From IMG/VR virus record IMGVR_UViG_2882178878_000003, positions 21,909 to 85,908 of that record: a stretch of 64,000 bases of DNA. The stretch is one strand, 5' to 3'. A program made the position numbers and the translations under genes. Below are positions 11,001-55,300 of the stretch, piece after piece. Origin of the DNA: a virus (Duplodnaviria; Caudoviricetes). The notes under the pieces were generated by a model that did no database searches, was not told the DNA's origin, and was given only the letters and a program-made list of their open reading frames with translations. How positions within the stretch are numbered: position 1 is the stretch's first letter; the number at the start of each line of letters is the position of its first letter.

Positions 11001-11645
11001 TTAATCAGGCTGATTGTAGTTACTTGTTGATGGCTTTAATGTCCATCGCTTCCATGCTTTTGCTTTGCCTGCCTTGACATTAAGCAACCCGGCTGTAGCG
11101 TTGCAGTATTCTCCGCCCGTACCGCGCTTGCCGCCTGTGCGCTTAAATACGGTGTCAGCAGGGGCAAATAAATGTGGGTTTTGGCGTACAAACTCATATA
11201 GATTTTTAAACTTGTACTCGGTGCCATCTGGTGAGATAAGCCACCAGTCTACTGCCTGCACATTAGACGCAAACTTGCCAGCAAGTGGACTAAGTTTAGC
11301 GGCCTCAGTTGCCATAATCTGGCCTGCATTGCTGTGTGGTGCACACTGCGGCTTTTTGGTGCCGATGTCCTTGCGTTTTGCCTTGCTGGCTGCTGCTGGT
11401 GCGCCAAGCTCCCAGCGTTTTTTGGCTACTGTGTCGTAAGCCAGTCCAAGATCACGGGCCAGCTCAGTATTGTTTTTTGACCAGTCTGCCTGTGACCAAT
11501 CCACTTTGCGCGGCTTTGGTTTAACTGTCTTGCCAAGCTTGGCGCGGTAGGTGTAGATCGTATGCAGCTTAACGCCCATCTTTGCTGCTATTACATCGTT
11601 GGGCTGGCTCCAGTCAATCGCCAGCCAGTCAGATTTACTTGCCAT
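11001..11645 (-). CDS. Tandem-HTH DNA-binding protein, third gene of the acr-like operon
   Basis: Two DWS..N..(I/L)A..(M/L)G HTH-like repeats; C-terminal WWLISPDGTEYKFKNLYEFVR module; very basic. Confidence 0.6.
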   Translation of the reverse strand: MASKSDWLAIDWSQPNDVIAAKMGVKLHTIYTYRAKLGKTVKPKPRKVDWSQADWSKNNTELARDLGLAYDTVAKKRWELGAPAAASKAKRKDIGTKKPQCAPHSNAGQIMATEAAKLSPLAGKFASNVQAVDWWLISPDGTEYKFKNLYEFVRQNPHLFAPADTVFKRTGGKRGTGGEYCNATAGLLNVKAGKAKAWKRWTLKPSTSNYNQPD

Positions 11646-11658
11646 AAATACCGTCAAC

Positions 11659-12159
11659 TTAAATGTTTTTTAGTGCATAGCGCGGATGCTGACCACAGGA
11701 CAATAAAAACATGCCCCAGGTGGTCGGGTGTGGTCGTTGCTCCCCCTTTTCCCAGCGCTGCCAGTTTGAGATATTAACGCCTGCTAACTTGGCGCATTTA
11801 GCCTGAGTGCCGACTTGTTTGCGCAAGTCTTTTATTTGCTCGGGTGTGGGTGGCTCAACGGGCACGTTATCCCATATTTGCACAGGCTGGTTGTACTCAG
11901 CTGCGACTGCATTAAACATGCGCTCGGCGGCCATATCTTTGTCACCACCATTGGTCAGGTGCGCTTGATACCATGTAGCGATTAACGCGCCCACATTGTC
12001 GGGGTTGGCAAAAATAGCGCGGTCAAGCTGGTTGTGGTCTGCCAGCTCATGGATTGCTGACCAGTTAAATTGCACGTGGCCGGTGTCCTGATCGTGCCAT
12101 AAGCCTAAATCAGCAAAATCCAGATTGTCCGGCACGCTAATTTGTTTTTGTTGTTGCAT
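11659..12159 (-). CDS. AcrIC6-like domain fused to a C-terminal XRE HTH (Acr-Aca-like fusion)
   Basis: The N-terminal ~90 aa align with the AcrIC6 C-terminal domain as recalled (MQQQ, PD..F.DL.L..D.D.G.V.F.W, DNV..LI..WYQAH...GG). C-terminal PTPEQIKDLRKQVGTQAKCAKLAGVNISNWQRWEKG is an HTH. A GGAG RBS precedes the ATG at 12159. Confidence 0.6.
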   Translation of the reverse strand: MQQQKQISVPDNLDFADLGLWHDQDTGHVQFNWSAIHELADHNQLDRAIFANPDNVGALIATWYQAHLTNGGDKDMAAERMFNAVAAEYNQPVQIWDNVPVEPPTPEQIKDLRKQVGTQAKCAKLAGVNISNWQRWEKGEQRPHPTTWGMFLLSCGQHPRYALKNI

Positions 12160-12203
12160 AGGTTGCTCCAAAAGATAAGCCCCATTGCTGGGGCCTTGTT
12201 GGT

Positions 12204-12470
12204 TTATAGGACTTCGATTGATTCAGGGTTGTCCCAGTCCAGGTTGTCGTCTTCCAGGCGGCCATCTTTGTAATTTTTAAATAACCAGGTTACGCGGTAT
12301 TCATTGCCATCTTTGTCGGTTGCTAGGGCGCTAAACTCATCCCAGTACATTTCACATTCTTCACCGTCTACTTCTTCAGTCCAGCTATCGTTAAACCAGC
12401 CTGCAAATACGCGGTTGGTGCGCTCAGCTTGGTCGGTAAAGGTTAGGTCATTGATAGTAATTGCGTTCAT
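12204..12470 (-). CDS. Small acidic Trp-rich protein; candidate anti-CRISPR/anti-defence protein
   Basis: 88 aa with 23 D/E, 7 K/R and 5 W; first gene after a strong promoter with an operator; GGAG RBS. Confidence 0.6.
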   Translation of the reverse strand: MNAITINDLTFTDQAERTNRVFAGWFNDSWTEEVDGEECEMYWDEFSALATDKDGNEYRVTWLFKNYKDGRLEDDNLDWDNPESIEVL

Positions 12471-12535
12471 TTTGATTCTCCGCCCGTGTAATGCGCTGGG
12501 CTTGCGCCGACTGCGTTATCGCTGTCTATGTAGCT

Positions 12536-12564
12536 ATATTACCGCGAATTGCGGTAAGCGTCAA
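12536..12564 (-). promoter_or_regulatory. Near-consensus sigma70 promoter with internal palindromic operator
   Basis: TTGACG (12559-12564), 17 bp, TAATAT (12536-12541). Perfect inverted repeat TTACCGC-GAATT-GCGGTAA at 12539-12557. Confidence 0.85.
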
Positions 12565-12589: not shown

Positions 12590-12620
12590 GTTCGTCGGAT
12601 TTGATCTGATGGGCTTTTTT
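12590..12620 (+). terminator. G-U-rich hairpin plus T6 (plus-strand only)
   Basis: 11-bp stem containing four G-U pairs, 3-nt loop, then TTTTTT. Confidence 0.45.
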
Positions 12621-12651
12621 GTCGCACTTGCATGAGTGTGTGGATTGGAAG
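12621..12651 (+). CRISPR. Solitary type I-C CRISPR repeat-like unit (not an array)
   Basis: GTCGCACTTGCATGAGTGTGTGGATTGGAAG matches the recalled I-C repeat GTCGCACTCTTCATGGGTGCGTGGATTGAAAT at 26/32 positions with one gap. The 7-bp stem CGCACTT/GAGTGTG is retained. Confidence 0.6.
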
Positions 12652-12720: not shown

Positions 12721-13419
12721 ATGGCAGACGACAAAACCACAGACTGGAAAAAGATTGAGCTGGATTATCGCGCTGGCGTTAAAAGCTTGCGTCAGATTGC
12801 CAGTGAAAATGGTATTTCGGATACCGCCATTCGGAAGCGAGCCAAAAAGGATGAATGGACTCGTGATTTATCAGCACGTATTCAAGCTAAAGCAGATGAT
12901 CTGGTTCGCAAGGATCAAGTTCGCGCTGAGGTTCGCACAAGAACCACTGTTTCAGAGCGTGAGATTGTTGAATCAAATGCTCAGGCTATTGCTACTATCC
13001 AGCTTAACCACAGGAAAGACATTCAACGTTCCAGAAACATAGCCATGAATCTTATGGCTGAACTTGAGCAGCAATCTGGCCTTGATAACGCTGATTTGCT
13101 TGAGCAGCTTGGCGACTTGATGCGCAATGAGGATGACAAAGGGCAGGATAAATTAAACGATTTGTACTGCAAGATTATTTCTCTACCTGGTCGCGCTAAA
13201 ACCATGAAGGATCTGGGCGAATCATTACGGGTTCTGATTGGCCTTGAGCGCCAGGCATTTAATATGGATTCTGCCAATATCAATGATTCAGTTGCTGGTG
13301 GTACTGGCAAGCAAATGTCAGATGCTGAAAGGGCTGTTCGCCTATCACGCTTACTTCAATCCAATCCGGATGCATACCAAGCATTATTGGCGTTAAGAAA
13401 TGGTGGCAGTAATGGCTAA
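12721..13419 (+). CDS. Terminase small subunit (probable)
   Basis: N-terminal HTH (DWKKIELDYRAGVKSLRQIASENGISDTAIRKRAKK); directly upstream of terL. Confidence 0.75.
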   Translation: MADDKTTDWKKIELDYRAGVKSLRQIASENGISDTAIRKRAKKDEWTRDLSARIQAKADDLVRKDQVRAEVRTRTTVSEREIVESNAQAIATIQLNHRKDIQRSRNIAMNLMAELEQQSGLDNADLLEQLGDLMRNEDDKGQDKLNDLYCKIISLPGRAKTMKDLGESLRVLIGLERQAFNMDSANINDSVAGGTGKQMSDAERAVRLSRLLQSNPDAYQALLALRNGGSNG

Positions 13420-21908: not shown

Positions 21909-23195
21909 ATGACAACCAAAACCAATTCCTCTTACGGGGATAAAACCAATATGACGCAACAGGCAGTTGGCCTGTTTGCAACTCACATGCAACGCAACAG
22001 CACCATGAACCGTCTGGTCGGCAAGATGCCCAAAGGCGAAGCTGGCGCTGAAGCAACCCTGCGCAAGCAAACCACCCAGCACATGCCAATTGTGCGCTGT
22101 CAGGATCTGGGCAAGAAAATGGGCGATGAGGTGACGTTTCACCTGCTAAACCCTGTGAACGCCAAACCCATCATGGGCAGCCACAATGCTGAAGGCCGTG
22201 GCGTTGGCATGAACCTGTCCGAAGACCGTCTGCGTGTAGATCAGGCGCGTTTCCCGGTTGACCTCGGCAATGCCATGACTGACGTGCGTTCGCCCGTGGA
22301 TTTCCGCCGTCTGGGTCGCCCGGTTGCGCAAAATCTGATGGACCGCTATTGCGACCAGTCCATGCTGGTGCATATGTGCGGTGCACGTGGCTTCCAGAAC
22401 AATATTGAATGGGTCGTGCCAACCGAAAATGATGCTGATTTCTCAGAAATCATGGTCAACCCGGTTAAGGCGCCAACCAAGAACCGTCACTATCTGGCCG
22501 ATGGCACAGGTGTCCAGTTGTTTAAGGAAAATGCGGGTGAAGTGGATATTACCTCTACTGACCTGTTCAAGATGGACACCGTGGATTCCATGCGCTCCGT
22601 GCTTGACCAGATTGCATTGCCACCACCAGTGATCAAGCTGGAAGGCGATGCGGCAGCTGACGATGATCCGCTGCGGGTCTGGATGGTATCACCAGCCCAG
22701 TACAACAAGTTTGCTGCCGATCCGTCTTTCCGTACCTTGCAGGCCTCTGCACTGGCACGTGCCAATCAGGCGAAAGGACATCCATTATTCTTAGGTAGCG
22801 TAGGCCTGTGGAATGGCTTCCTGATTATGAAGATGCCACGCCCAATCCGCTTTTATGCTGGCAATACCATGAAGTACTGCGCTTCATACAGCAGCGAAGC
22901 TGAATCATCCGTGCTGGTTCCAGCAAGCTTTGGCACTCAGTTTGCCATTGACCGCTCAGTGATTCTGGGTGGACAGGCACTGGCCGAAGCCTTCGCGTCA
23001 GCACGTCAGTCCGGCATTCCATTCTTCTGGTCTGAAAAAGAGCTGGATCATGGTGATAAAGCCGAGCTGCTGATCGGTGCTATTCGCGGTGTTTCCAAAA
23101 TCCGCTTTGAAGTGGATGGCGGCAATGGCAAGGAATTCACCGATTATGGCGTGACAGTGGTTGATACCGTGGTTGATAACCTGGCTGGAACTTAA
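21909..23195 (+). CDS. Major capsid protein, N4-gp56 (DUF4043-like) family
   Basis: PIVRCQDLGKKMGDEVTFHL..P......GVGMNL, LARANQAKGHPLFLGSVGLWNG and DYGVTVVDT motifs. Confidence 0.85.
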   Translation: MTTKTNSSYGDKTNMTQQAVGLFATHMQRNSTMNRLVGKMPKGEAGAEATLRKQTTQHMPIVRCQDLGKKMGDEVTFHLLNPVNAKPIMGSHNAEGRGVGMNLSEDRLRVDQARFPVDLGNAMTDVRSPVDFRRLGRPVAQNLMDRYCDQSMLVHMCGARGFQNNIEWVVPTENDADFSEIMVNPVKAPTKNRHYLADGTGVQLFKENAGEVDITSTDLFKMDTVDSMRSVLDQIALPPPVIKLEGDAAADDDPLRVWMVSPAQYNKFAADPSFRTLQASALARANQAKGHPLFLGSVGLWNGFLIMKMPRPIRFYAGNTMKYCASYSSEAESSVLVPASFGTQFAIDRSVILGGQALAEAFASARQSGIPFFWSEKELDHGDKAELLIGAIRGVSKIRFEVDGGNGKEFTDYGVTVVDTVVDNLAGT

Positions 23196-37182: not shown

Positions 37183-40100
37183 ACATGACATTGTTTATTC
37201 CAAACATGAAAGCCATGGATGAGTCGATTGATCAAGTTAACGACAAAATGAAATATTTTGAGGGGAAGGCAAATAGCTTTTCGGCCGCCCTTGCCAAAGA
37301 ACTAAGTAATATTTCAAATATCCAGTTTGATGAGATTGGCGATGCACCTTCGCTCACTCCAAATAATGGCCTTGATTCCCTGAGTCCAGTGGTTCTCCCG
37401 GAGCTTTCTGCGCCCGACATTGCACCCCCTGTGCTTGACCGACAGGATGTGGTTGCATTATCAACACCCGCGCCGCTTGATATTGCGCCACTAAATCTAA
37501 CTATTGAGCAGCCCGTATTGCCCAATCTGGATAATACATTTAATCCGGTAAGTTACACGCCGATTGATGACATTAATCGGATTCAGGCACCTGAAATAAT
37601 TGGCGACATCAAAGCTCCAGTAATGGAGTTGCCAGACTTAAAATCCCCACAAGCACCCGCTCTTGTCAATAAGCCAACTATTAATCTAGATATCGCTGCA
37701 CCCGTATTGCCCAATCTGGATAATGCATTTAATCCTGTTGGCTACACAGCCATTAGTGATATCGCTGGCCTGGAAGCGCCAAGAATTGACACGGAAATTA
37801 AGGGAAGTCATCTAGAGTTGCCGGAATTCAAGACGACACAAGCACCTGCACCACTACAAAGACCAAATGTTAATCTGGATATTGATATCCCAGTGTTACC
37901 TGATCTTCCTAGTCAATTTGCAGAAGTAGCTGAGGATTTTAGCTATGATGCACCATCCATTGAATTTGACACTATTCCTGCCCCACTTAATGACGATGTG
38001 AATTTTACCAGTAAGTTGCCCACACTGGATATTTCAAATTTGATGGGTGCACTGGATTTTACCCTGCCTGACATGCCGGACGTGCCAGTTGGTTTTGATA
38101 TTGCGATGCCAGCTGTGCCAGATATTAATACAGGATCTGCGCCTTTAGCTCCGGCCATTGATACAACCATTAATCTGCCCAGCGCACCTGAACTCAACCT
38201 ACCTGAAATGGAGGCACTTGAGGCAATTGAGTTACCCTCTTTTGAGTTTGAGGGAGTGCCTGAGTTTGATGAGGAAGCACCTGTCTTTGAGATTGATGCA
38301 TCTGTATTTAGTGATATTGACCAGGCGCTGACTGATGCGGTTGAGGTACTATCCAAAGACTACTTTGAGCACAATAAAGATTCAGTCATTAGTCCGTTGA
38401 TGACTGAGATTAAAAATTGGCTTGAAGGTGGTCACCCGGGAACAGGATTGCCTGCATCTGTGGAATCCGCATTATTCAACCGGGCTGTTGACCGCGAAAG
38501 CCAGCAAACCAGACGTGCAGTAAGTGAAGCTGTTAATGAGTGGGCAGCACGTGGTTTCTCTATGCCGCAGGGAATGTTGCAAAAGCAGATTAGCGCTATC
38601 CGTGATGACGCCAGATTAAAATCGGCTGACTTAAACCGTGAAATTATGGTGCAGTCGTTTGACAAGCAGCTTGAACATATTCGCTTCTTAACCACCCAAG
38701 GTATGGCGCTGGAAAAAATGCGTATTGATTTGTGGACTGCCTACACAGCCAACATGATGCAAGTGGTGCAGCTTCAAGTAGAAAGCAAGATAAATATGTT
38801 AAATGCACAAATCAGTTTATTCAATGCTCAAGCCAGTGCATTTGAAACACTGGTGACGATATATAAAACCAAAATCGAAGGAGCAATTGCCAAAATTACA
38901 GCGTATAAAGCGCAGGTTGATGCACAAATGGCAATTGGGCAAATCAACCAGCAAAAAATAGAGATATTCAAAGGCAAAATCGAAGTGGTATTGGCCAATG
39001 TGGACGTTTACAAAGCTTTGATCCAGGGTGAAAGCGCTCGGTCTGATGCGATTAGGAATCAGATTGATGTTTATAAAACTGAAGTATCTGCATATGCCGA
39101 GGAGATGTCCGCCCAAAAGGCCAGAATTGATATTTTTAATGCTCAGGTCAATGCAGAAACTGCCAGAGTGGGCATGTTTGAATCAATATCAAGAAACTAT
39201 GCCACAACTATCCAGGGAATTGGTGTGCAAGCTGATGTCAAGAATAAGCAGCAGGGGCTAATTATGGAGGAGGCGCGGCTAAAATTACAGGAATTTAGCG
39301 CACTCATGGATCTTGAAAAGTCGGAAATATCAACCCGACTGGCGATTGCCCAGAACAATACCAATAATTTTGTCAGGCAGGTCGAGTGGGTTAAGGCGGT
39401 TAGCGATCAAAAGTCAAGGAAGGCCGATCTTGAAATGAAGTCACTGGATGCCAAGCAGCGTACAGTCATTGCCAATGCTGATTTACGCGGCAAGTACGCG
39501 GATATCAATTCTAGAATTATTCTTGCCAATGCAGACATGCAGGGCAAGTACATGGATATTAAGTCGCGTTCTGCAATGGCCAAGCTTGATAGTGAAATGA
39601 AGTACGTCGATATCCAGTCACGTATTGATCTGAGTAACGCTGAAATTGAGGCGAAATATGCAGGCATGGATGTACAGGTCAAGACAGCCAAGCTGGATGC
39701 AGACAGTAAAGCACTGGATGCACAAATCAGGGTGGCTACGGCTAATGCTGATTTACAATCTCGTCACTTGGATAATCTGACTAAAGTTGGGATTGCCAAT
39801 GCCGATGCAAACATCAAAGTCAGTATGGCCAACGCAGAAATGCAGGGTAAATATGCAGATATCAATTCCAGAATGGTGATTTCAGGGGCAGAGTTGCAGG
39901 GCAGGTTTGCCGAGATTCAATCAAGAGTAGCAATGGCCAAGCTTGATAGTGAAATGAAGTACGTCGATATCCAGTCACGTATTGATCTGAGTAACGCCGA
40001 GATTGCAGCCAAGTATGCCGATATGGATATCAAGGCTAAAACTGCCAAGCTGGATGCTGATGGCAAGGTATTGGAGGCCAATGTACGCATTGCAACTGCC

Positions 40101-43339: not shown

Positions 43340-46300
43340 ATGTCTGATTCTAAAATTGACTGGAGCAAGGGCACTTTAACTCAACCAGCAAACCCCGAAA
43401 ATAATAATGAAGCCATTGATTGGAATAACGGCACTTTAACCCATCCTGATGAGATCCCAGTAAAAAAGAATAAGGGTATAGTTGGTCATCTTCAAGATAC
43501 TGCCGCTTCCCTTGCTTCGGGTCTGGCATCAGTGCCAGATATGGCTGTTGGCGTTGCCGATATGTACACCGAAGGGCGTGCAGGCAAGGCAATAGATGAT
43601 ACTGGCGTTTATAAAATGGGTGAAGCCAGTAAATACTGGCAGGACAAAAAAACCGATATTGCCAAAGAACAGGATATAACCCGCCAAAGCACCGAGGGGA
43701 TCTGGAACAAAACCAAATATGTTTTGGAAAACCCCTCACAAATTACCAATGCAGTAGTGGAGTCAGCACCTTCAATTCTGGCAGGTGGGGTTGCCGGGCG
43801 CATATCCAAAATTGCCAATCCGTTGGTGGCTGGTGCAGTTGGCGAAGGGATAGTGGGCGCCGGTGCACAGGCCGAAAATATCCGGCAACAAACCAATGAC
43901 GGCTTGCTGGATAATGGCCAGCAAGCCGCTGCTGCGGGAACTGGCGCTTTAACGTCCCTGTTTAGCATGGCTGGCGGTAAGCTGGCGCAAAAAATGGGGA
44001 TTGGTGATGTTGATACTTTGCTAACCCGAGGTCATGCCACACCAGCACAAGTTGCAGGTGAAATCGCATCCATGCCTGCAAAGAGTTTACCGCGTAAAGT
44101 GATTGAAGGTGCAATCTCAGAAGGCTTTTTGGAAGAATTGCCGCAGTCAGTATCTGAGCAGATCATTCAAAATCTGGCACTAGATAAGCCATGGCATGAA
44201 GGGGTTGAAGATGCTGCCGTCATGGGAACACTGGCAGGCATGGCAATGGGTGGCGGTATCGCACCTTTCCATGGCAACCCACCCACCAGCCCATCTGGAC
44301 AGGACAATAGTCTGCCACCTGAAAACCCTAATAATCCATTAGCACCATTACCAGCACCAGCAGGAAATGATCTTGGCAGCACCCCCATGGAAGGTGAATA
44401 TATTCCCAGGCCCAATAGCCAAGATCCAGCACAGGCGGGGCGCACACCAGAAACGGTAGACGGAACAGCAACAGAATGGTTTGACCGTGAGCGCCTGCAA
44501 AATGCACCAGCCAATACCTCACCTGATTTACTGACTGGTATTGAAAACCAGCCTGAGGCATTTGATGCACCAGCAAATCCAGCCTTGCCAGCCCCATCAA
44601 TTGAGCCAGCCAAACCCTCAGAACAATTAGGCCTTGACCCCAATGCAGGTTCACTATCCGCTGCTGCTGCTTTGGCCGTAGATAGTGGCGCTTCACCACA
44701 TATTACTAACCCAGATACAGCAATCAATCAGGTGGATGAGTCGGCACAGGCAGCGGGTGATCTCACAAAACCACGCACCACTGCTGATGACATCAAGAAT
44801 GGCTTTAACGCTTTGGCTGGTGGCGCTGTTGATGCCATGGTGGAACGCACCAGTGATTTATTGCAAGCGGGGCAAGATGTAACCTTTTACAAGCCTGATT
44901 CCATTGCCAGCGCCCTGCAAAATCCCAACTATCATGTACAGCAAAATGAGGACGGTTCAGCAACAGTGCTAGGCGCACTTGATCCACGCACGAATGAATG
45001 GATAGGTCAGGCACCAGCCCAGCCAGATACATCACAACAAATTACCCCAGCGGATAATGGTCAGGACATTAATACTTCTCGACAGCGCAGCAATACGAAC
45101 CGAACTAACGAGCAGGTAATGGATGATGCATTGGCTGCGGTGCAACGAACCAAAGATAAATTAAATGATCCTTCTCGCTATCCTGAACTGCATACCGAGC
45201 AAGCAATCAATGAGCGCAAGGACTATGAACTGCCCGGTGGCTATGTACGCTCGCTTGCAGATCAGCTATCTAGTGGTGAGGCAGTTGAGGCGAATAATAG
45301 CCGCCGCGCCAATATATTTTTAAATAATCCAAATTTTAATGCTGCCAAGAATGAAGATGGCGTAGTAGCTGTTCTAGGGATTAAGCATCCTGATACCGGT
45401 GAATGGGTAGGTCGGGCACCCGAGCAGACCACCACAAGCAATCCGGCTGCTGCAGCGCAATCACCAGCAGCACAGGAGCAATCCCCGCAAGCACCAACAC
45501 TCACCAGCGAATACGCCCCCGGTTCTGTACCGCATGCGCGTGATATTGCCACACAAGCATTAGAGCAATACAGCGGCGATACCACAGGTTTAACTGACAA
45601 AGGCCAGTCATTAACCAGCCATAGCCCTGCTGCTGATCTTATTTACTACAAAAATTCCCCATCCTTTAGCAATGTAGAAGTGCAGGATGCTGGTGATAAG
45701 GCAGTCGTGCAACTAACCAATGCCAAAACCGGTGCAGTTGAAACCCGTGACTATCCGCAAAGTCTGGTTGGCTTTAATCAGTTTTTAGATGGCGGTCAGG
45801 CTGAAACTACCCCCGCACAGGCAAGCAGTGCAACTACTGCACAGCCAACAGAAAGCAATCAGGTTGAGCAGCTAGAACAGCAGCTTGCTGATACTAAAAA
45901 CGTGGCGCAAAAGGCACAGCTACGCAAACAGATTAATGAATTAAAGGTACAGCAGGGTGAGCAGGCTGCACCGGTACTTGGTGCTGATGGCAATAATAAA
46001 TGGTTTGGAAGCCAGCAAAAGGCACAAGGCTTTATTGATAAAAATAAACTTGATGATACTCACCAGGTTGTACAGACTGAAAAGAACCGTTTTGAGATTC
46101 AGCCTAAACAGCCTGCTACGCAGAACGTACAAGATGCGCCGCAGAGTGTAGAGCCAGCAGTACAACAGCAAAATGCAGAAGTACCAAACCCGTATAAAGA
46201 GAATCAATTACGGGCCAATGTGCGAAACATTAACACCCAGGTAAGCAGCAATGCGAAAGATGCTACTACAAGACCACAAGCCTTTAACCAGGAAGTGCAG

Positions 46301-49300
46301 AAGCAATACCCAGGTCTATATGCACGCGCAGAAGCATTAGCTAAAACAGCAAAGACCACGCCAGCAGGCCGCCGTGGTAATACTCAATTTTCAAGTCTAA
46401 GTTTTGATGGTGATAAAACATATCAATCTGGCGACCCGTACCCAAAAAAGCCAACAAAAGACGAAGTTTTACAGCAAGCAATCTGGCATCTGTCACAAGA
46501 TGATAAAAACAATGAATCTCATGCTTGGGATAATTTAGATGAACAGCAAAAAACCGAAGTTTTAAAGCGTGCTGGTTGGAAAACTAACGCAGGCGGCCTA
46601 AATGTTATCGGTAAGAAATTACTGAAACAAAATTCTACTGCTGTTAATACTGAAACAATGAAAATCATTGAACGCAATATGCCTGGGAACCAGGGAGTAC
46701 AGCAGCAGTCAGTCAAGCCAGCATCTACCGATGCCAAGTCGATGACAGAAGCCGAATTTGATCAGGCTATGAACAGCGAGGCTGGTGCAAGGTCATTAGT
46801 CGATAAGGGTATCAGTGCCGGGTTATTCACCCAGCAGGATATAGATACCGTTACCAATGGAAACTTTGCAGCAGGCTGGACACAGCTAGACCAAAACGAC
46901 AGTCTTAAGTCCCTGTTTAAATCCAAAGGGCTGATTCAAGGGCAGGCACAGCAACCCGCCCAACAAGGTACAGCTAAACCCAAGACCGTCACCACCTCAT
47001 CTGGCAAACAGATTGAGGTGCGCTTCAAGGTGGTGGAGGCATCAGAGCTTGGCACGTCACACACTGGCAATGGTGCAATCAATCCGGCATACCCACAGGA
47101 ATTACAGCCGCGTGACCGTTCACGTTCAGCATCCATCAACCAGATTAATGACATTGCCGCCAACCTAAACCCGCACATGCTTGGCGATAGCCCCACGGTG
47201 ACTGATGGCGCCCCAATTGTATCGAGTGACAATATCGTAGAAAGCGGCAACGGACGCACCCTGGCAATTACCAAAGCCTACCAGACTGGACGCGGCGAAG
47301 CATACAGACAGCATTTGCGTGATGCGGGTTATGACGTTAACGGTATGCAGCAGCCGGTGCTGGTGCGCGAGCGCGTCACTCCCATGACCATGCAGGAGCG
47401 TATTGAGTACACCGGCGAAGCCAATCAGCGCAACACATTGGGGTTAAGCGTATCTGAGCAAGCCGAACAGGATGCCAAGAAGTTAAGCAGCCGTGTGACC
47501 AGCCTGTATCGCGGCGGGGATATTAATTCACCCACCAATACGCCATTCATTAAGGCGCTGATGAATGAAGTGGTACCGCAGTCCGAGCATGGCAACATGC
47601 AACAAAAGGACGGACAGCTATCACAAGATGGTAGGCGTCGGATTCAAGCGGCGCTACTGCAAAAAGCCTACGGCGATTCTGCCTTAGTGACCGAAGTATT
47701 TGAAAGCACTGATACCGAGATTGCTTCCATTGGTAAAGCCTTGCTGGATGTGGCCGGCGAATGGGCATTGATGCGTGATGGCGTGCAAAATGGCGAGCTG
47801 CTACAGGACGTTGATGTTACCGCTAACCTGATGGAGGCAGTGCGTATTGTGCAAAAAGCGCGAGCCGAGCGCCGTTCAATTGCCGAAGTAGCAAGACAGG
47901 ATGATATATTTAGTGGCACTATTGACCCGGTAACAGAGGGCTGGTTGTCGGTATTTTATCGGGGCGATCATTTCAACAGAGCCAGAAGCCGCGAGAAGGT
48001 ATCAGGTGCTCTGTCTTATTATGTAGGTCAGGCCAGCCTATCAACCAAGGGTGAGAATCTGCTGGGTGAAACCGCCCCCGGTGGACGTGAAATTTTAGGA
48101 GCGACCAATGAGCGAACCAGAAAGCAAGAACAAGACACGCAACAAGACATCTTCAGCAGCCCGCGAGCTAATGAATCGAACCCTGCTGAATCTGGCAGAG
48201 CAGGACAAGGACGTACCACTGAAAAACAGAATGAAGAAGCAGCTAAGCCAGAAGTAGGGCGGGAAAAATCTGATGTTCAGGTAATGTCAGAAAATAAAGG
48301 GGATATTGCAGAGGATATTGCCAGAGAAATCCAGCGCGTCAATCGGCTAAAGCAGTCGATAAGAAAGCAAGGCAAGCAAACATCATTACAAGCAGACAGA
48401 AGTAAAGTAGCTAAAAAGTGGGGGTTAAATCCTGTAGGTTGGGGTAAGTTCGATATTGTTTTTGGTGCAGCAGTATTAGCTGACGTGGCTGCTGGCTTTG
48501 ATTCAAATGCGAGTTTTGAGCAGTTAAAGGCTGCTGCAATCAAAAAAATTGATGAGCTTGTTGAAGCTAAAGCAAAAGAGGGAGTCGCCGTTAAAGCGCC
48601 CGATACACATGCAGGCGTTAGTCCTGCCTCATTTAAGGCACTGCAAGACTTGCGACTGGCACCGCACCCTAAAACCCTCGAGGGACTGCTGGAACAGTAT
48701 GAACAAACTCGTGATGCTGCCAATCAGATAGCCGCCGAAGCCACTGATCCGGCAGTAAGCAAGGCGTATAGACAGCAAGCCGATATGTATGAGGCAGAAG
48801 CTCGAATCGTAAGGAGTGAGCTGGGCACAAAAAAACAGGAACAAACTGAAAACAGTAAGCCAGACCTGGTAGAAGAAATCCAGTCGATGAGCCTGGATGA
48901 TATTTCTGCCTTGTTTGATGAAGTGGCGCAGGAAAATAACGCGGTTGAAACCAGTAAGCCAAAAGCTAAACGTAGCACTAAAGGCAAAACTGCTACAGGC
49001 AAACCACGGCCAAAGCCAAAGGAAGCCCAAGCTGAAAAGATTGATCCTGAAAACAAAGAGGACACCAAGCGTACCGCAAGCGCGATTGCAAAAGACATTG
49101 GTGCAAACCTAAGTGACGCTGGTTTAAATGCGCTGGATGGCTTAGCCAAGCTGTTTGGTGGCAATGGCAAGATGAATAGCGGCCTATCATTTGATGAGGA
49201 CACCTACGCCAAAGCCAAGCCGCATTTTGTGCAATCAGCCAAAAGCACCATTGAGGCAGGCAAGAACCTAAAAGACTTAATCCGCGCCCTGATTAATGCG

Positions 49301-52300
49301 TTTGGTGATGGCATTAAACCCTATGTGATGCGCTTTGCGTCCGAGGTGCAAAACGGTGAGATTAATCTAAAAGATGATGATGCTGTTAAGCAGCAGGACA
49401 GCACCACAGAATCACGCCGACCTAAGTTCGGTGATGAGGATTATACACTTGCGCATGCTAAGGCAGATTTAAAAGAGCTTCGTGATAAAGCGGCAGGATT
49501 AAGAATAGGTGACGCAGACCTTGATCGCCGCGTTAAACTGTTTGAAGATATTGTTGAATCAATGCAGGAGCAAGGCAATGACACCACACCGCAACTGGGT
49601 ACGGATGGCAAAGGAACACTGGAAGGAGTTTCGACCCAGGATGTATCAGGATTATCTGAGGCGGGGGATACTGGACCAAAAGGCCGAGGAAGCAGCGGAA
49701 CTAACGTACAAGGAAGTGGACGCACTGGAACAGCAGGGATTCCAGCCCCACGAGGCATGGGAGATGGTGCGGGAGAAGTACATCATCCTGCCGGAGAGCA
49801 AGGACTAATCAAGGCCAATGGCGGCATCAAGCCTGAACAGGCCGTAGTCGCTACCAACACCCCCGACAGCGCCTTTAATATCACCGCAGAGGATAACATT
49901 GGCGCTGGCGGTAAAAAAACCAAGTACCGCAACAACGTAGAGGCCATACGCCTGCTAAAGCAGCTTGAGCAGGAAGGACGTCAGGCCACAGCAGCAGAAC
50001 AAAAAGTCTTAGCCAAGTTTGTTGGCTGGGGCGGATTAGCCGAAGCCTTTAAACGCGACAATGGCGCAGTCACCAAAGGCTGGGAAAAAGAAGTTGCCGA
50101 ACTTGAGCAACTACTTGCCGCTGATGAAATGAAAGCAGCGGTTGATTCATCCAACGCGGCCCACTACACCAGCCCTGAGATTGTCACCGCCCTATGGGAT
50201 GCCATTAAGCAGTTTGGTTTTGTGCAAGGTCGTGTGCTTGAGCCGTCTGTAGGTGTGGGTAACTTCTTTGGTTTAATGCCAAAAGGCATGCGCAGCAAGA
50301 GCGCATTGCATGCCGTAGAGCTTGATACCATTACCGGCGGCATTGCCAAGCAGTTATACCCTGCTGCCAACATCAAGGCGCCAATGGGCTTTCAGGACTA
50401 TCAGACCATTGATGGTTATTTTGATGTGGCGATTGGCAACCCGCCATTTGGCCGCCTGCAAATTACCGATGCGGTGCGCCGTGAAATCAGCGGCATGAGC
50501 ATTCACAACTACTTCTTTGCCAAGTCCATTGACAGCTTAAAGCCTAATGGCGTACTGGCAATGGTGGTCACTAACCGTATGCTTGACACCCCTAACGACA
50601 AGGCGCGGCAATACATGGCCGAGCGTACCGAGTTTCTAGGGGCAATTCGTCTGCCTAATGATGCGTTTTTAGCAAATGCCGGCACCCAAGTCACCACCGA
50701 CCTGATCTTTTTGCGTAGGCTGGGCGAGGATGAGCAGCCCACTGGCCATAGCTGGACACAGGTTAAGGATTACCGCGACAAGAACGGCAATGTTGTTCCG
50801 CTAAACGAATACTTTGTGAAAAACCCGCAAAACATGCTGGGTGATTTTGGCATGTATGGCAGCATGTATAGTGCTGAGGATAGTGCCTTGGTCAAGCGTG
50901 ACGGCCAGGATACCAATGCCCTGTTAAAAGAAGCCATTGGCAACCTGCCTAAAGATGTGTTCAGGGCCGAGCCATCAAAAGCTGAAGAAACCAATGCTGC
51001 ATTAACCCGCGACATTAGCGAAGTCAAAGTCGGCGCCATGTTTGTTGACGGTGATCGCATCATGGAGCGCACGCCTGATGTGATGGGCGAGCAGCAAGCG
51101 GCACCGGTTGAACTGGCAAACAACAAGGCGGTTGAGCGCGTCACTGGCATGATTGGCGTGCAGCAGGCGCTTGCCGATGTGCGCACCTTGCAGTTAAGCC
51201 ATACCGCAACTGAGGCGCAGATTGAAAAGGCACGTAAGGCATTAAATCAATCCTACGATGCCTTTGTTAAAGAAAACGGTTTTATTAATAGTGACGCCAA
51301 CAAGCGGCTAATGCGGGATGACCCCAACTGGCCGCAGTTATCCGCCCTTGAAGATCGTTACGATGCTGGCGTATCGGTTGCTGTATCGAAAAGAACCGGC
51401 GAGCCTACCCGCAAGCCAAGCGCACACAAGGCAGCGATTTTCAGCACCCGCACCCAGTCACCTGTGACCGTAGTCACCAAAGTCAATAGCGCCAAAGACG
51501 CGCTGGTTGAATCCATGAACCGGCATGGCGCGGTACAGATGGACACCATGACCAAACTGTACGGGAAAAGCGAACAGGAGATTATCAGTGAGCTTGGTGA
51601 TCTGGTCTTTAATGATCCTGAGCATGGGCTGGTGACTAAAGATGCTTACCTGTCCGGTAACGTCAAAAAGAAACTGGCACAAGCCAAAGAGGAAGCCAGC
51701 AAAGATCCTGCCTTTGAGCGCAACGTGGTGGCACTGGAACGGGTAATTCCTGCTGACATTGAAGCCATTGATATTGAGGTGCGACCTGGTGCGCACTGGA
51801 TTCCTGCGAGTGATGTGGCTGATTTTATCAACCATGTGCTAAGCACAACCGGTAGCAAGGCAAACTATAGCGGCTATGATTCTGCCTGGTCTGTTGCAGC
51901 AGGTATGCCCAGTGCATCAGCCAACGCCCAGTATTCAACTGAAAGGGTTAAGGCATCAGCCATTGTTGCTCATGCGCTAAATGGCAGCAAGCCTGTAGTG
52001 CGCGATAAGGTAGATGAGCATACTACGGTTATTAACCAGGAGGAAACCGCCCATGCTGGCAAGAAAGTTGATGATGTTAAGCGGGCATGGAAAGACTGGA
52101 TCTGGGAGAGTGACGAGCGCCGTACCCGCCTAAGCCGCCTGTATAACGACACATTCAATACGGATGTGACCCGCACCTATGACGGTTCACACTTAAAGCT
52201 GGAAGGCAAGGTAGACGATAGCGTCATCCGCCTGCGTCCGCACCAGCTTAATGCGGCATGGCGCATCATTCAAAACCCATCCACTCTGGCGGACCATACG

Positions 52301-55300
52301 GTAGGTGCTGGCAAAACCTTTACCTTAATTGCTGCCACAATGGAATTGCGCCGCATGGGGATTGCCAAAAAACCGATGCTGGTAGTACCAAACCATCTGG
52401 TGGGGCAATGGGCGGCTGACTTTACCAAGCTATATCCCAATGCCAATATTTTAGCGGCAACCAAGCGCGACTTTGAAAAAGGCAACCGCAAGCGCTTCTT
52501 TGCCCGCATTGCCAATGGTGATTATGACGCGGTGATTGTGGCGCATTCATCGTTTGGCAGATTAGCCGTTGATCCTAATGCTGAGTCAACTTTCATTCAA
52601 AATGAAATTGATAAGCTGATGGCATTTGAAGCCGAGGCCCGCGAGGGAGAGGGCAAGGATTCGCGCAATGCCAAAAAGATTGCGGATCGCCGCCTGGCGC
52701 TGCAAGAAAAACAGAAAAAGCTATCTGCCGAGCAAAATAAGGACACTGACAACATTTACTGGCATGAGCTTGGCGTAGATACCATCATGGTTGACGAAGC
52801 GCACGAGTTTAAAAATCTGTACTTTGCCAGCAAAATGCAAAACGTGGCCGGCCTGGGCAATGGCAAGGGTTCGCAAAAAGCCAGTGACCTGTACATGAAA
52901 ACTAACATGCTGCAGAAGAATAACCCCAACGCCAAAGTAGTGTTCGCAACCGGTACGCCGATCAGCAACACAATGGCCGAAATGTTTACCATGCAGCGCT
53001 ACCTGGATGGGCAACGACTGGCAGAACAGGGCGTTGAGCATTTTGACGCATGGGCAAAAATGTTTGGTGAAGTGGTGAGTGACTGGGAACTGTCGCCATC
53101 AGGCAAGTACAAGCTGACCAACCGGTTTGCCAAGTTTAGCAATATGCCTGAGCTGATGCAGCGCTACCTGTCCTTTGCTGATGTGATTAACCGCGATGAC
53201 ATTAACCGGCAACTGGCCGAGCGCGGCGAAACCCTGGGCACGCCCAAGATTAAAACCGGCAAGCCCATTAATACCGTAGTTGAGCGCAGTGATGTGCAAG
53301 CGGAATATATTGGCGTGCCATCGGTTGATGAGCATGGTGTTGAGCATTACCCGGAAGGATCGCTGGTACATCGCTCTGAAAACCTGCCGACCAAGCCAGA
53401 AAAAGGCGCAGACAACATGCTTAAGATTATGTCTGACGCGCGTAAGGCGGCACTGGACATGCGCCTGATTGACCCAGCAGCAGCCGATTATGAAGGCTCT
53501 AAAGTCAACGTAGCAGCAGACAACATCATGGCCGACTATCACAAGTGGGCCGATAAAAAAGGCACGCAACTGGTATTTTGTGACCTGTCCACGCCAAAAG
53601 GCGCAGTCGCCAAAGAGCGGGCACGGATTGATGATTTAATGCAGCGTGCCGATCAGGGCGATGAGGACGCGCAAACTGAACTCGACAAAATCAGCCCTGA
53701 TGATTTAGAGGCATTGACCAGCAGCTTTAGTGTGTACGATGACCTAAAAGCCAAGCTGATCGCCAAAGGCATTCCTGAAAATGAAATCGCTTTTATCCAT
53801 GATGCTAATACCGACCTGCAAAAACAGGAGCTTTTTGGCAAGGTTCGTTCCGGCCAGATTCGCGTACTGATTGGCTCAACCTCCAAGATGGGCGCGGGCA
53901 TGAACGTGCAGGATCGCCTGGTTGCCTTGCACCATCTGGATGCACCGTGGCGGCCGTCGGACCTTGAGCAGCGCGAAGGGCGTATCATCCGGCAGGGCAA
54001 TATGCACTACAAGGCTGATCCTGATGGCTTTGAAGTGGGTATTTACCGCTATGCCACCAAGCAAACCCTTGATAGCCGCATGTGGCAAACCCTTGAAACC
54101 AAGGCGCGCTTTATTGAGCAGATTCGCAAGGGTGATTCCAAAGCGCGTGTGGTTGAGGATGTGGGTAGTGAAGCCGCCAATGCTGCAGAAATGAAGGCAG
54201 CATCAAGTGGTGATCCGCGTATCCTGCGTGAAATGGAATTGAAAAAACAGCTCCGCGACATGCAGGAAGAACACGATTCATTCCGCCGCGATAAATTCCG
54301 CGCCGCCGACATGCTCAAGCGTTTAAATCAGGATATTGAAACCCTGCCTGAATTGATTGCCAATATTGAGCAGGACCTACAGATTAAGCAGCCAGAAAAA
54401 TACCGCTATCAAAGCGCCAGCGGTCAGGTGATTCAGCAGGGCGATGAAAAAGCCCGCGAAGTGATTGGCAACAAGCTGGCTTCACTGGCACATAAGGTAG
54501 CTGGTGATAAAAAAGCGGCGTCTGCTGGTGAGATTAATGGCTTTGCGATTGAGATTAAGCCGGTAGAAAATCAAAGCAATATTGTTGAATTTGAGCTAAC
54601 CGGCAAGTCAGGCGAGCCATACAGCACAACCTTTAGCCTTGAACAAGATTCCACTGACTATCTGGTACAGCGCCTAACCAACCTAGTTAAGAAGCTGCCG
54701 GATACGCTACGCCAGGCAAAATCCAGTCTGGACTACGCCAAAACCGAAGCACCCAAGCTGCAGAAAAAAGCCGAAGCCAAATGGGATAGGCAGGCTGAAA
54801 TGGGCCGTTTGCAGCAAGAGCATGAAGCCTTGATTGATGAGCTTAAGCCCAAGAAAAAGGACGACAGCAACGATGCTGGCAAGCCACTACACAGCCGCCA
54901 GCAGGAACAGCAGCGCACCAATACCACGACCAAGCAGGTACGTGACAAGCTGGTCGAGAAGTTTGGCGAGGATGTTATCCAGTCACTTGAGCAGCAAGGC
55001 TTGCTTGAGATCGTGGATACTCATTCTGAAGCAGGTGTTGAGGGCTTTTATCACAACGGCAAGGTCACATTAGTCGCTGATGGCTTAACCGCTGATACCA
55101 TCATTCCCACATTCCTGCATGAGCTGGGCGGGCATGGCGGAATGCAGGGCTTGATGAAGCCATCCACCTACAATGAGCTCATGCGCGGTTTTGAGGCTAT
55201 GGTGAAGTCTGGCAACCCACTGGCACTGGAAGCTAAACGCCGCGCAGAGGTGGAAACAGATCCAGCAGTACAACAGCAGGAATACTTGCCTTACCTGATT

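Follow-up and report, generated by a model that had tools for sequence, protein, structure and literature searches.

How does a bacterium survive when spacers of its own CRISPR array match the prophage in its genome? The question is raised by a stretch of 64,000 nucleotides (nt), positions 21,909 to 85,908 of the IMG/VR virus record IMGVR_UViG_2882178878_000003 (Duplodnaviria; Caudoviricetes), which we call the window and to which all coordinates refer unless a locus is named. Its prophage carries an operon of three genes, here named g1, g2 and g3 in the order of transcription, at positions 11001-12470 of the minus strand, between the prophage replication genes and terS. Operons of the acr-aca kind, which encode anti-CRISPR (Acr) proteins, have a strong promoter that is autorepressed by a helix-turn-helix (HTH) protein binding an inverted repeat in that promoter, and an earlier note made from the bare sequence had proposed that this operon is one of them, an anti-defence island that would be switched on as the DNA enters the cell and autorepressed afterwards.

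We consider it probable that this autorepressed operon blocks the type I-C CRISPR system of its host and so keeps the self-targeted lysogen alive, a reading in which we infer both inhibition and repression. The observations are the domain homologies of g2 (an HTH of the Aca10 family and a domain homologous to AcrIC6), an operator that goes with the type of HTH, the variability of one gene slot and the self-targeting of a type I-C host. The acr-aca proposal of the earlier note, drawn from the architecture of the locus, is supported by the Aca10-family HTH, the AcrIC6 homology, the link between operator and HTH, and the self-targeted host.

The regulator and its operator

The features of the promoter and of the first two genes are as follows (pI, isoelectric point; z, z-score of the fold).

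12559-12564, minus strand: -35 hexamer TTGACG, from sequence reading and promoter scan
12536-12541, minus strand: -10 hexamer TAATAT, from sequence reading and promoter scan
12539-12557, no strand assigned: predicted operator, perfect palindrome TTACCGC-N5-GCGGTAA that fills the promoter spacer and overlaps the -10 hexamer
12471-12529, minus strand: 5' leader, about 59 nt long, with a sequence that related loci share; its 3' end is the g1 Shine-Dalgarno sequence GGAG
12204-12470, minus strand: g1, 88 amino acids, candidate type I-C anti-CRISPR in a variable slot; acidic, with an all-beta model
12177-12196, minus strand: GC hairpin followed by a U tract, resembling a leaky terminator, between g1 and g2 (-14.2 kcal/mol, z -2.7)
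11659-12159, minus strand: g2, 166 amino acids, with GGAG six bases before its ATG
11896-12159, minus strand: g2 residues 1-88, AcrIC6-like domain; acidic (pI 4.4 over residues 1-100)
11692-11859, minus strand: g2 residues 101-156, HTH of the Aca10 family and proposed autorepressor; basic (pI 9.7 over residues 101-166)

Read from the promoter, the elements are the leader, g1, the GC hairpin with its U tract, g2, g3 and a terminator. Much of what the earlier note had read from this region is borne out: the three-gene minus-strand operon between early genes and terS, the TTGACG-17-TAATAT promoter with the perfect palindrome in its 17-nt spacer, and the very acidic first product (pI 4.05, with 23 D/E against 7 K/R) are all present. 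Its count of two HTH-containing proteins stands in part, as g2 has a convincing C-terminal HTH and g3 gives only sub-threshold HTH hits. The same applies to the word strong that it gave to the promoter, a description which is derived from the position, the 17-nt spacing, the AT-rich upstream tract and the conservation in related loci, and to which the promoter score lends no support (9/12 against the consensus, with five such sites per 3.5 kb where 5.2 are expected).

By sequence comparison and structural modelling, g2 is a fusion protein, with an AcrIC6-like domain in front and an Aca10-like HTH behind. Residues 103-155 match PDB entry 7XI5 (phmmer, E 4.5e-8). This entry is Aca10, which represses the acrIC7-acrIC6-aca10 operon in Pseudomonas citronellolis (PMC9410881). 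A scan of IMG/VR for the 21-bp operator of this published operon located it in locus L017, where the exact published promoter TTGCAA-N16-TATTCT with IR1 and IR2 is followed by genes of 94, 144 and 65 amino acids. Residues 104-153 of g2 are 43% identical to the 65-residue Aca10 of L017 (BLASTP, E 6e-13), and the middle gene, acrIC6, matches residues 1-88 of g2 with its residues 41-130 (38% identity over 91 residues, E 9e-19). An AlphaFold2 model built on a 77-sequence alignment has two domains and a mean confidence (pLDDT) of 94.9. Foldseek ranks Aca10 first for the C-terminal domain (TM 0.86 by target, root-mean-square deviation (rmsd) 1.0 Å), and VIA-align gives the pair a Z of 9.3 (rmsd 1.3 Å over 56 residues), other XRE domains reaching Z values of 7.5 at most. 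For the N-terminal domain the structure hits contained no solved analogue, but these lists were filled by matches to the HTH domain.

The HTH of g2 also has weak hits to MqsA, all below cut-off (Pfam E 0.003, PDB 3FMY 1e-4, NCBIfam TIGR03830 1.8e-6), and a small gene in first place, an HTH gene in second and a palindrome in the promoter would suit a toxin-antitoxin module like MqsRA or HigBA in which the toxin gene comes first, with g1 as toxin and g2 as antitoxin repressing through the palindrome. This is hardly credible, since Aca10 is clearly the better match for the HTH, the N-terminal domain is AcrIC6-like and not the zinc-binding domain of MqsA, and g1 is acidic, all-beta and without a toxin family hit in Pfam, NCBIfam or PADLOC. 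Moreover, seven unrelated first genes were found beside the same regulator (see below), a swap that a co-evolving pair would not tolerate.

An exhaustive HMMER search for the g2 family yielded 448 hits, in which the AcrIC6-like::Aca10-like fusion stands out as a separate family, its several clusters showing 26-53% identity. Both parts also occur alone, the AcrIC6-like core as proteins of about 100 amino acids in many clusters and the g2-type HTH as proteins of 63-80 amino acids. In addition, the core is joined to an Aca2/YdiL domain in P0103 (325 amino acids; PF08965, 1e-14) and, in reverse order, stands behind an N-terminal HTH_31 domain in P0085 (164 amino acids), so that with g2 it is joined to at least three regulator domains and in both orders. 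Conversely, in P0005-P0011 the g2-type HTH is joined to an unrelated N-terminal domain. In the host genome g2 is the sole Aca10-like or AcrIC6-like gene.

The palindrome, in full TTACCGC-AATTC-GCGGTAA, is 19 bp long and covers the first three bases of the -10 hexamer. It occurs once in the window (0.12 expected with up to two mismatches) and once in the 3.06-Mb genome, where 0.13 sites would be expected from the 12 core bases. A core TACCGC-N5-GCGGTA with variable centre lies in the promoter spacer of the window, L004, L005, L020 and L025. In L004, L005 and L020, whose g2 homologues are 72-87% identical, the spacing of the -35 and -10 hexamers is kept together with the half-sites TACCGC/GCGGTA, and the same arrangement of sites was found in L025/L033, from another genus of the same bacterial family, where the HTH stands alone (75% identity including the linker). 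Throughout the related loci the -35 element has the same place, reading TTGATA, TTGACC, TTTACA or TTGACG.

The P0008 group has another N-terminal domain and a nearly identical recognition region, and its operator was predicted before the sequences were inspected. The prediction held: L036 reads TTGACG-TTACCGCAAGTTGCGG-TAATAA with the full palindrome, and the 15-nt core ACCGC-N5-GCGGT is present in all five loci L036-L040, as it is in L033, all of which encode the same HTH type. Altogether, ten other loci with a g2-type recognition region have the same half-sites at the same promoter position. Loci with more distant regulators have other palindromes in the operator position. In L001 and L021, whose regulators are 53-56% identical to g2, it reads GACA(C/T)GCT-A-AGCATGTC, a variant also written GACATGCT-A-AGCATGTC, and in L035, which has a different regulator, TGTCGCA-CTTA-TGCGACA. 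The operator thus changes with the HTH on a constant promoter scaffold, as expected of a repressor-operator pair, and these comparisons support the view that the palindrome behaves as the operator of the g2 HTH across related loci. The minimal Aca10 site also spans 19 bp and has the same promoter position (PMC9410881).

Two side observations concern these operators. L038 (1057-1071) and L039 (954-968) have a second ACCGC-N5-GCGGT, some 900 bp upstream of their acr-type promoter, which precedes a gene of 133 amino acids and an HTH_17 gene; in those phages the regulator may control a second promoter. The third of the operator variants, TGTCGCACTTATGCGACA at L035:290-320, has GTCGCAC(C)TTAT in common with the start of the host I-C repeat and with the repeat-like unit at window position 12621, a resemblance that may be due to chance. 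The three operator/regulator variants on one promoter scaffold constitute a natural series for the study of how Aca specificity changes.

The leader was considered as an RNA element and is not claimed as such, as an RNAalifold alignment of related loci gave it a weak structure (-4.1 kcal/mol) with one compensatory pair. Scans of viral and metagenome contigs with the exact pattern of promoter plus leader returned no match.

The first gene and the variable slot

Which product would then act on the CRISPR system? The first gene encodes a small protein of net charge -16 with five tryptophans, and its model is all-beta (pLDDT 81). It is nearly an orphan, with one homologue (58% identity) in 5.8 billion proteins; an open reading frame (ORF) 36% identical to g1 lies in the lysogeny/accessory region of Paenibacillus phage BN12, a context that is uninformative. 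Searches of Pfam, PHROGs, NCBIfam, PADLOC, PDB sequences, Foldseek, VIA-align and the protein atlas gave no match above noise. A VIA-align comparison with the small anti-Cas9 protein 7JTA (Z 5.3) fell inside the noise range and was discarded, and homology to AcrIC7, the first gene of the L017 operon, was not found (best BLASTP E 0.69). In composition g1 resembles most AcrIC proteins, which are described by their authors as small and very acidic (PMC7913775).

Between the conserved leader and the regulator, seven unrelated genes occupy the same slot in different loci:

window: g1, 88 amino acids
L004 / L005: 102 / 104 amino acids
L020: 121 amino acids
L001: 81 amino acids
L021: 97 amino acids
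L036: 63 amino acids
L025: DUF3560 protein, 215 amino acids

The gene of L025 alone matches a family; the six small ones have no Pfam hit above threshold, a result that for the 63-residue gene of L036 covers precomputed hits only. Variable small genes upstream of a conserved HTH gene are the classical signature of an acr locus. In the window the GC hairpin lies directly 5' of the g2 Shine-Dalgarno sequence, and a GCCCC/GGGGC stem with varying loops and a U tract precedes the Shine-Dalgarno sequence of the regulator in the window, L001, L020, L021 and L036. From these sequence comparisons, the scaffold is composed of an AT-rich tract, a promoter with swappable operator, a 59-nt leader, a cargo slot, a GC hairpin with U tract and a regulator of the X::Aca10 type. 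We tentatively propose that g1 founds a new family of type I-C Acr proteins and, at the same time, that the scaffold is a plug-in cassette marking at least seven unrelated, undescribed anti-defence genes. The scaffold of promoter, leader, slot, hairpin and regulator is a searchable handle, and its seven unrelated slot genes may be new inhibitors.

The cassette might also be an autoregulated anti-defence module in which g1 acts on another defence or host function, the inhibition of type I-C coming from the AcrIC6-like domain of g2 or from another locus of the prophage or genome. The dissimilarity of g1 to known Acr proteins agrees with this, as does the DUF3560 protein in L025, which means that slot genes need not all be anti-CRISPRs. 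We regard it as unlikely, because g1 is proximal to the promoter, best placed and acidic like most AcrIC proteins, and no second Aca10-like or AcrIC6-like gene was found in the genome. Moreover, AcrIC6 is a weak inhibitor of type I-C (PMC7913775), yet five perfect self-targeting spacers need solid protection. The Pseudomonas protein inhibits type I-C weakly and type I-E as well, activity data being for that protein alone (PMC7913775). Since AcrIC6 is only a weak I-C inhibitor in Pseudomonas, our guess, in which belief and doubt are about equally balanced, is that g1 would be the main inhibitor rather than the AcrIC6-like domain.

The self-targeted host and the proposed mechanism

On contig C12 of the host genome is a type I-C locus that is complete, with cas3, cas5c, cas8c, cas7, cas4, cas1 and cas2. 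All seven genes are open. Cas5c, Cas8c, Cas7, Cas4, Cas1 and Cas2 score above their own NCBIfam cut-offs, and Cas3 (761 amino acids, HD plus helicase) scores above those of generic HD and helicase-core models. Behind these genes lies an array with 61 repeats and 60 spacers. Its degenerate repeats are at the end distal to cas2, from which we place the leader next to cas2 and take spacer 60 as the newest. Ten of the 60 spacers match the window prophage and nothing else in the genome, five of them perfectly (15, 16, 33, 55 and 60) and five with one or two mismatches. The protospacer adjacent motif (PAM) of type I-C systems is 5'-TTC, and all ten protospacers, which lie on one strand, have it:

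49139-49173, minus strand: perfect protospacer of spacer 60 (leader-proximal, newest), TTC PAM
47207-47239, minus strand: perfect protospacer of spacer 55, TTC PAM
45476-45508, minus strand: perfect protospacer of spacer 16, TTC PAM
39923-39955, minus strand: perfect protospacer of spacer 15, TTC PAM
38999-39029, minus strand: perfect protospacer of spacer 33, TTC PAM
starts at 13293, 17811, 17947, 18410 and 38158: five protospacers with one or two mismatches, TTC PAM

If its system were active, a lysogen targeted in this way would not survive unless an inhibitor protected it. The perfect match of the leader-proximal spacer suggests that acquisition from this phage may be recent or ongoing, and, together with the location of all ten protospacers on one strand, that an inhibitor may block interference while spacer acquisition continues.

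In the array (C12:6866-10804, L011), the matching spacers are clustered (11, 13-16; 28, 29, 33; 55, 60), and these clusters with their one-strand protospacers (window 13293-49173) are reminiscent of primed acquisition. A single ORF of 4979 amino acids (43340-58279, plus strand) in the late region of the prophage holds three of the five perfect protospacers (45476, 47207 and 49139).

The mechanism that we propose begins with a sigma-70 promoter, aided by its AT-rich upstream tract, which would drive g1, g2 and g3 when unrepressed. The Aca10-family HTH of g2, presumably as a dimer, would bind the 19-bp palindrome between the -35 and -10 hexamers and reduce transcription to a low level that suffices for maintenance. 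The hairpin with U tract between g1 and g2 probably yields more g1 than regulator. The inhibitor, which could be g1, the acidic AcrIC6-like domain of g2 or both, would bind Cascade or Cas3, and continued low expression from the prophage would let the lysogen survive five perfect and five near-perfect spacers.

Self-targeting might, however, be tolerated for other reasons, such as a silent or subtly defective CRISPR-Cas system or a mixture of strains, the operon then being a generic autoregulated moron or regulatory module that does not act against CRISPR in this host. Public sequencing runs gave no RNA cover of the locus, none containing more than one-third of its sampled words and none being usable as RNA evidence, and relatives with the same HTH lacked a Cas8c hit. 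We find this explanation quite improbable given that the seven cas genes are open with full-length profile matches, the newest spacer is perfect and every protospacer has the correct PAM. Furthermore, the prophage is inside a 113-kb contig that reaches 21.9 kb and 27 kb past the window, the genome is estimated to be 100% complete with 0.02% contamination, and g2 joins two domains known only from anti-CRISPR loci.

A number of points weigh against the reading of the operon as an autorepressed blocker of type I-C interference. CRISPR activity is not readable from sequence and the system could be silent, an assembly from a mixed population could place array and prophage in different strains, and another locus could supply the inhibitor that makes self-targeting tolerable. 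The score of the promoter does not stand out in this DNA. Inhibition of Cascade or Cas3, DNA binding by g2 and repression are all inferred, as are the identity of the inhibitor and the role of the hairpin. On the side of the inhibitor, g1 has no detectable similarity to AcrIC7 or any known Acr, the AcrIC6 comparison was made with the acrIC6 gene of the Aca10 operon in L017 and not with the reference WP_080050315.1, and AcrIC6 is a weak I-C inhibitor in P. aeruginosa, with an efficiency of plating of about 0.01 (PMC7913775). On the side of the regulator, Q22, Q37 and R44 of Aca10 are of experimental importance for DNA binding and G49 for the dimer (PMC9410881). In our alignments Q22 and Q37 are kept in g2 as Q119 and Q134, R44, on which DNA binding depends most, is Q141 with R142 beside it kept, and the dimer-interface G49 is T146; altered contacts of g2 are expected, since its operator differs from that of Aca10. 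Finally, a Cas8c hit was found in none of the eight other genomes of the same family that matched a g2 query, against a background of 26 in 200 genomes, although these numbers are small, only two of the eight are close matches (75-79% identity, both metagenome-assembled genomes (MAGs)) and most hits are too weak to weigh. Acr-bearing elements are often found in hosts without the target system (PMC7913775).

In g1 the locus provides a new type I-C Acr candidate that can be tested directly, accompanied by a natural AcrIC6::Aca10 fusion in an unusually clean self-targeted setting. Type I-C systems are used for long-range genome editing, and new off-switches for them would have practical value.

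The remaining features of the operon and its borders are the following.

11001-11645, minus strand: g3, 214 amino acids, pI 9.9, the final gene, which begins 13 nt beyond the g2 stop codon
10993-11011, minus strand: intrinsic terminator closing the operon after g3 (-11 kcal/mol, z -5.05, followed by UUUUU)
12590-12620, plus strand: terminator-like hairpin with U6 at the upstream cassette border (-12.2 kcal/mol, z -2.9)

On sequence grounds, g3 is treated as an accessory basic protein resembling DNA-binding proteins and not conserved with the module. Its N-terminal HTH-like repeats give sub-threshold hits to Pfam HTH_29, HTH_36 and HTH_23 only (E 0.006-0.04). The C-terminal 100 or so residues (11001-11330) match PDB 9KJA, named 'HNH endonuclease' (E 3e-27), and inspection of this domain revealed no nuclease motif. 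Weak leads from the protein atlas point to DNA-binding modules of homing endonucleases. The g3 family, of about 90 clusters annotated as hypothetical only, is found in Pasteurellaceae, other Proteobacteria and an inovirus. Most of the related operons lack g3, and an 84%-identical copy ends the operon of L035. A full-length homologue with 47% identity is carried by Inovirus D_HF2_82 from human saliva (L019:2851-3507).

On one side the operon is flanked by genes for an integrase, a CI-like repressor, a primosomal protein, a DnaC-like loader and a DUF1064 resolvase, and on the other by terS, terL and the portal gene. Apart from a 111-bp stretch in an inovirus, there was no DNA-level similarity to known phages. 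The motif ATCCGACGAACGG, kept upstream of the promoter in L001, L004, L005, L020 and L035, is present as its reverse complement in the 5' arm of the border hairpin. This hairpin may protect terS and the acr promoter against read-through, or it may indicate where the cassette is bounded by recombination.

A unit at 12621-12651 (plus strand), directly after this plus-strand terminator and upstream of the only plus-strand promoter-like site, was considered as a solitary repeat or RNA anti-CRISPR, a role that the comparisons do not support above chance level. It is the best match to the host I-C repeat outside the array in the genome (23/32, with four unrelated sites at 22), and it agrees with the repeat in the 5' GTCGCAC and in the larger part of the 3' handle TGGATTG.AA. 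Its hairpin has a z of -0.01, an Rfam search gave no CRISPR-DR hit at E up to 10, and the unit is missing from both related loci with comparable upstream sequence (L001 and L035).

The closest known systems

The acrIC7-acrIC6-aca10 operon of P. citronellolis (Leon et al. 2021, PMC7913775; Lee et al. 2022, PMC9410881) is the closest relative, with the same order of an acidic first gene, an AcrIC6-type domain and an Aca10-type HTH, and like the window operon it is carried by a mobile element. The two differ in that the AcrIC6-like and Aca10-like parts are one polypeptide in the window and separate genes in P. citronellolis, and in that g1 is unrelated to AcrIC7. The Pseudomonas AcrIC6 homologue (L017:8264-8698, minus strand) has an N-terminal extension of 40 residues that is missing from g2. 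The operator is TTACCGC-N5-GCGGTAA in the window and ATACGCTCA-T-TGAGCGTAT in P. citronellolis, R44 and G49 of its Aca10 are not conserved in g2, and the window operon has in addition a third gene and a hairpin between g1 and g2. The host families differ as well, the relatives here being Moraxellaceae MAGs, and the window host has a type I-C system whereas P. citronellolis encodes only I-F (PMC7913775). By eye, the N-terminal extension of the L017 AcrIC6 looks like a ribbon-helix-helix; it has no Pfam hit.

Fusions of Acr and Aca are represented by AcrIIA1, AcrIIA13, AcrIIA15 and AcrIF24 (PMC9410881). Like these, g2 combines in one protein a putative inhibitor domain and an HTH that would autoregulate the acr promoter, but unlike them it is made of an AcrIC6-like core and an Aca10-like HTH. 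The titles and abstracts of the literature naming AcrIC6 present no AcrIC6::Aca10 fusion.

With self-targeting lysogens, a route by which Acr proteins have been discovered, the window prophage shares perfect spacers of an apparently intact CRISPR-Cas system of its own host, which implies a resident inhibitor. The prophages of Moraxella bovoculi that yielded AcrIC1 (PMC7913775) are of this kind. The window differs from known cases by the large number of targeting spacers (10/60, on one strand and including the newest), and from those of the AcrIC1 type by a candidate, g1, without known relatives.

The acr operons that Aca2 controls share with the window an HTH autorepressor, putative here, and a conserved leader that separates the promoter from the first acr gene. 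Aca2 is said, in 2024 work by Birkholz et al. (cited in PMC12248084), to control such operons at both the DNA and the RNA level. In contrast, the window operator is upstream of the predicted transcription start and so outside the mRNA, the leader has weak structure only, and RNA binding by g2 would be pure speculation.

Viewed against these systems, the acr-aca operon as a kind of system and both domains of g2 are already known. What is new here is the AcrIC6::Aca10 fusion, the operator sequence with its variants, the candidate g1, a reusable scaffold with a cargo slot, and a heavily self-targeted host.

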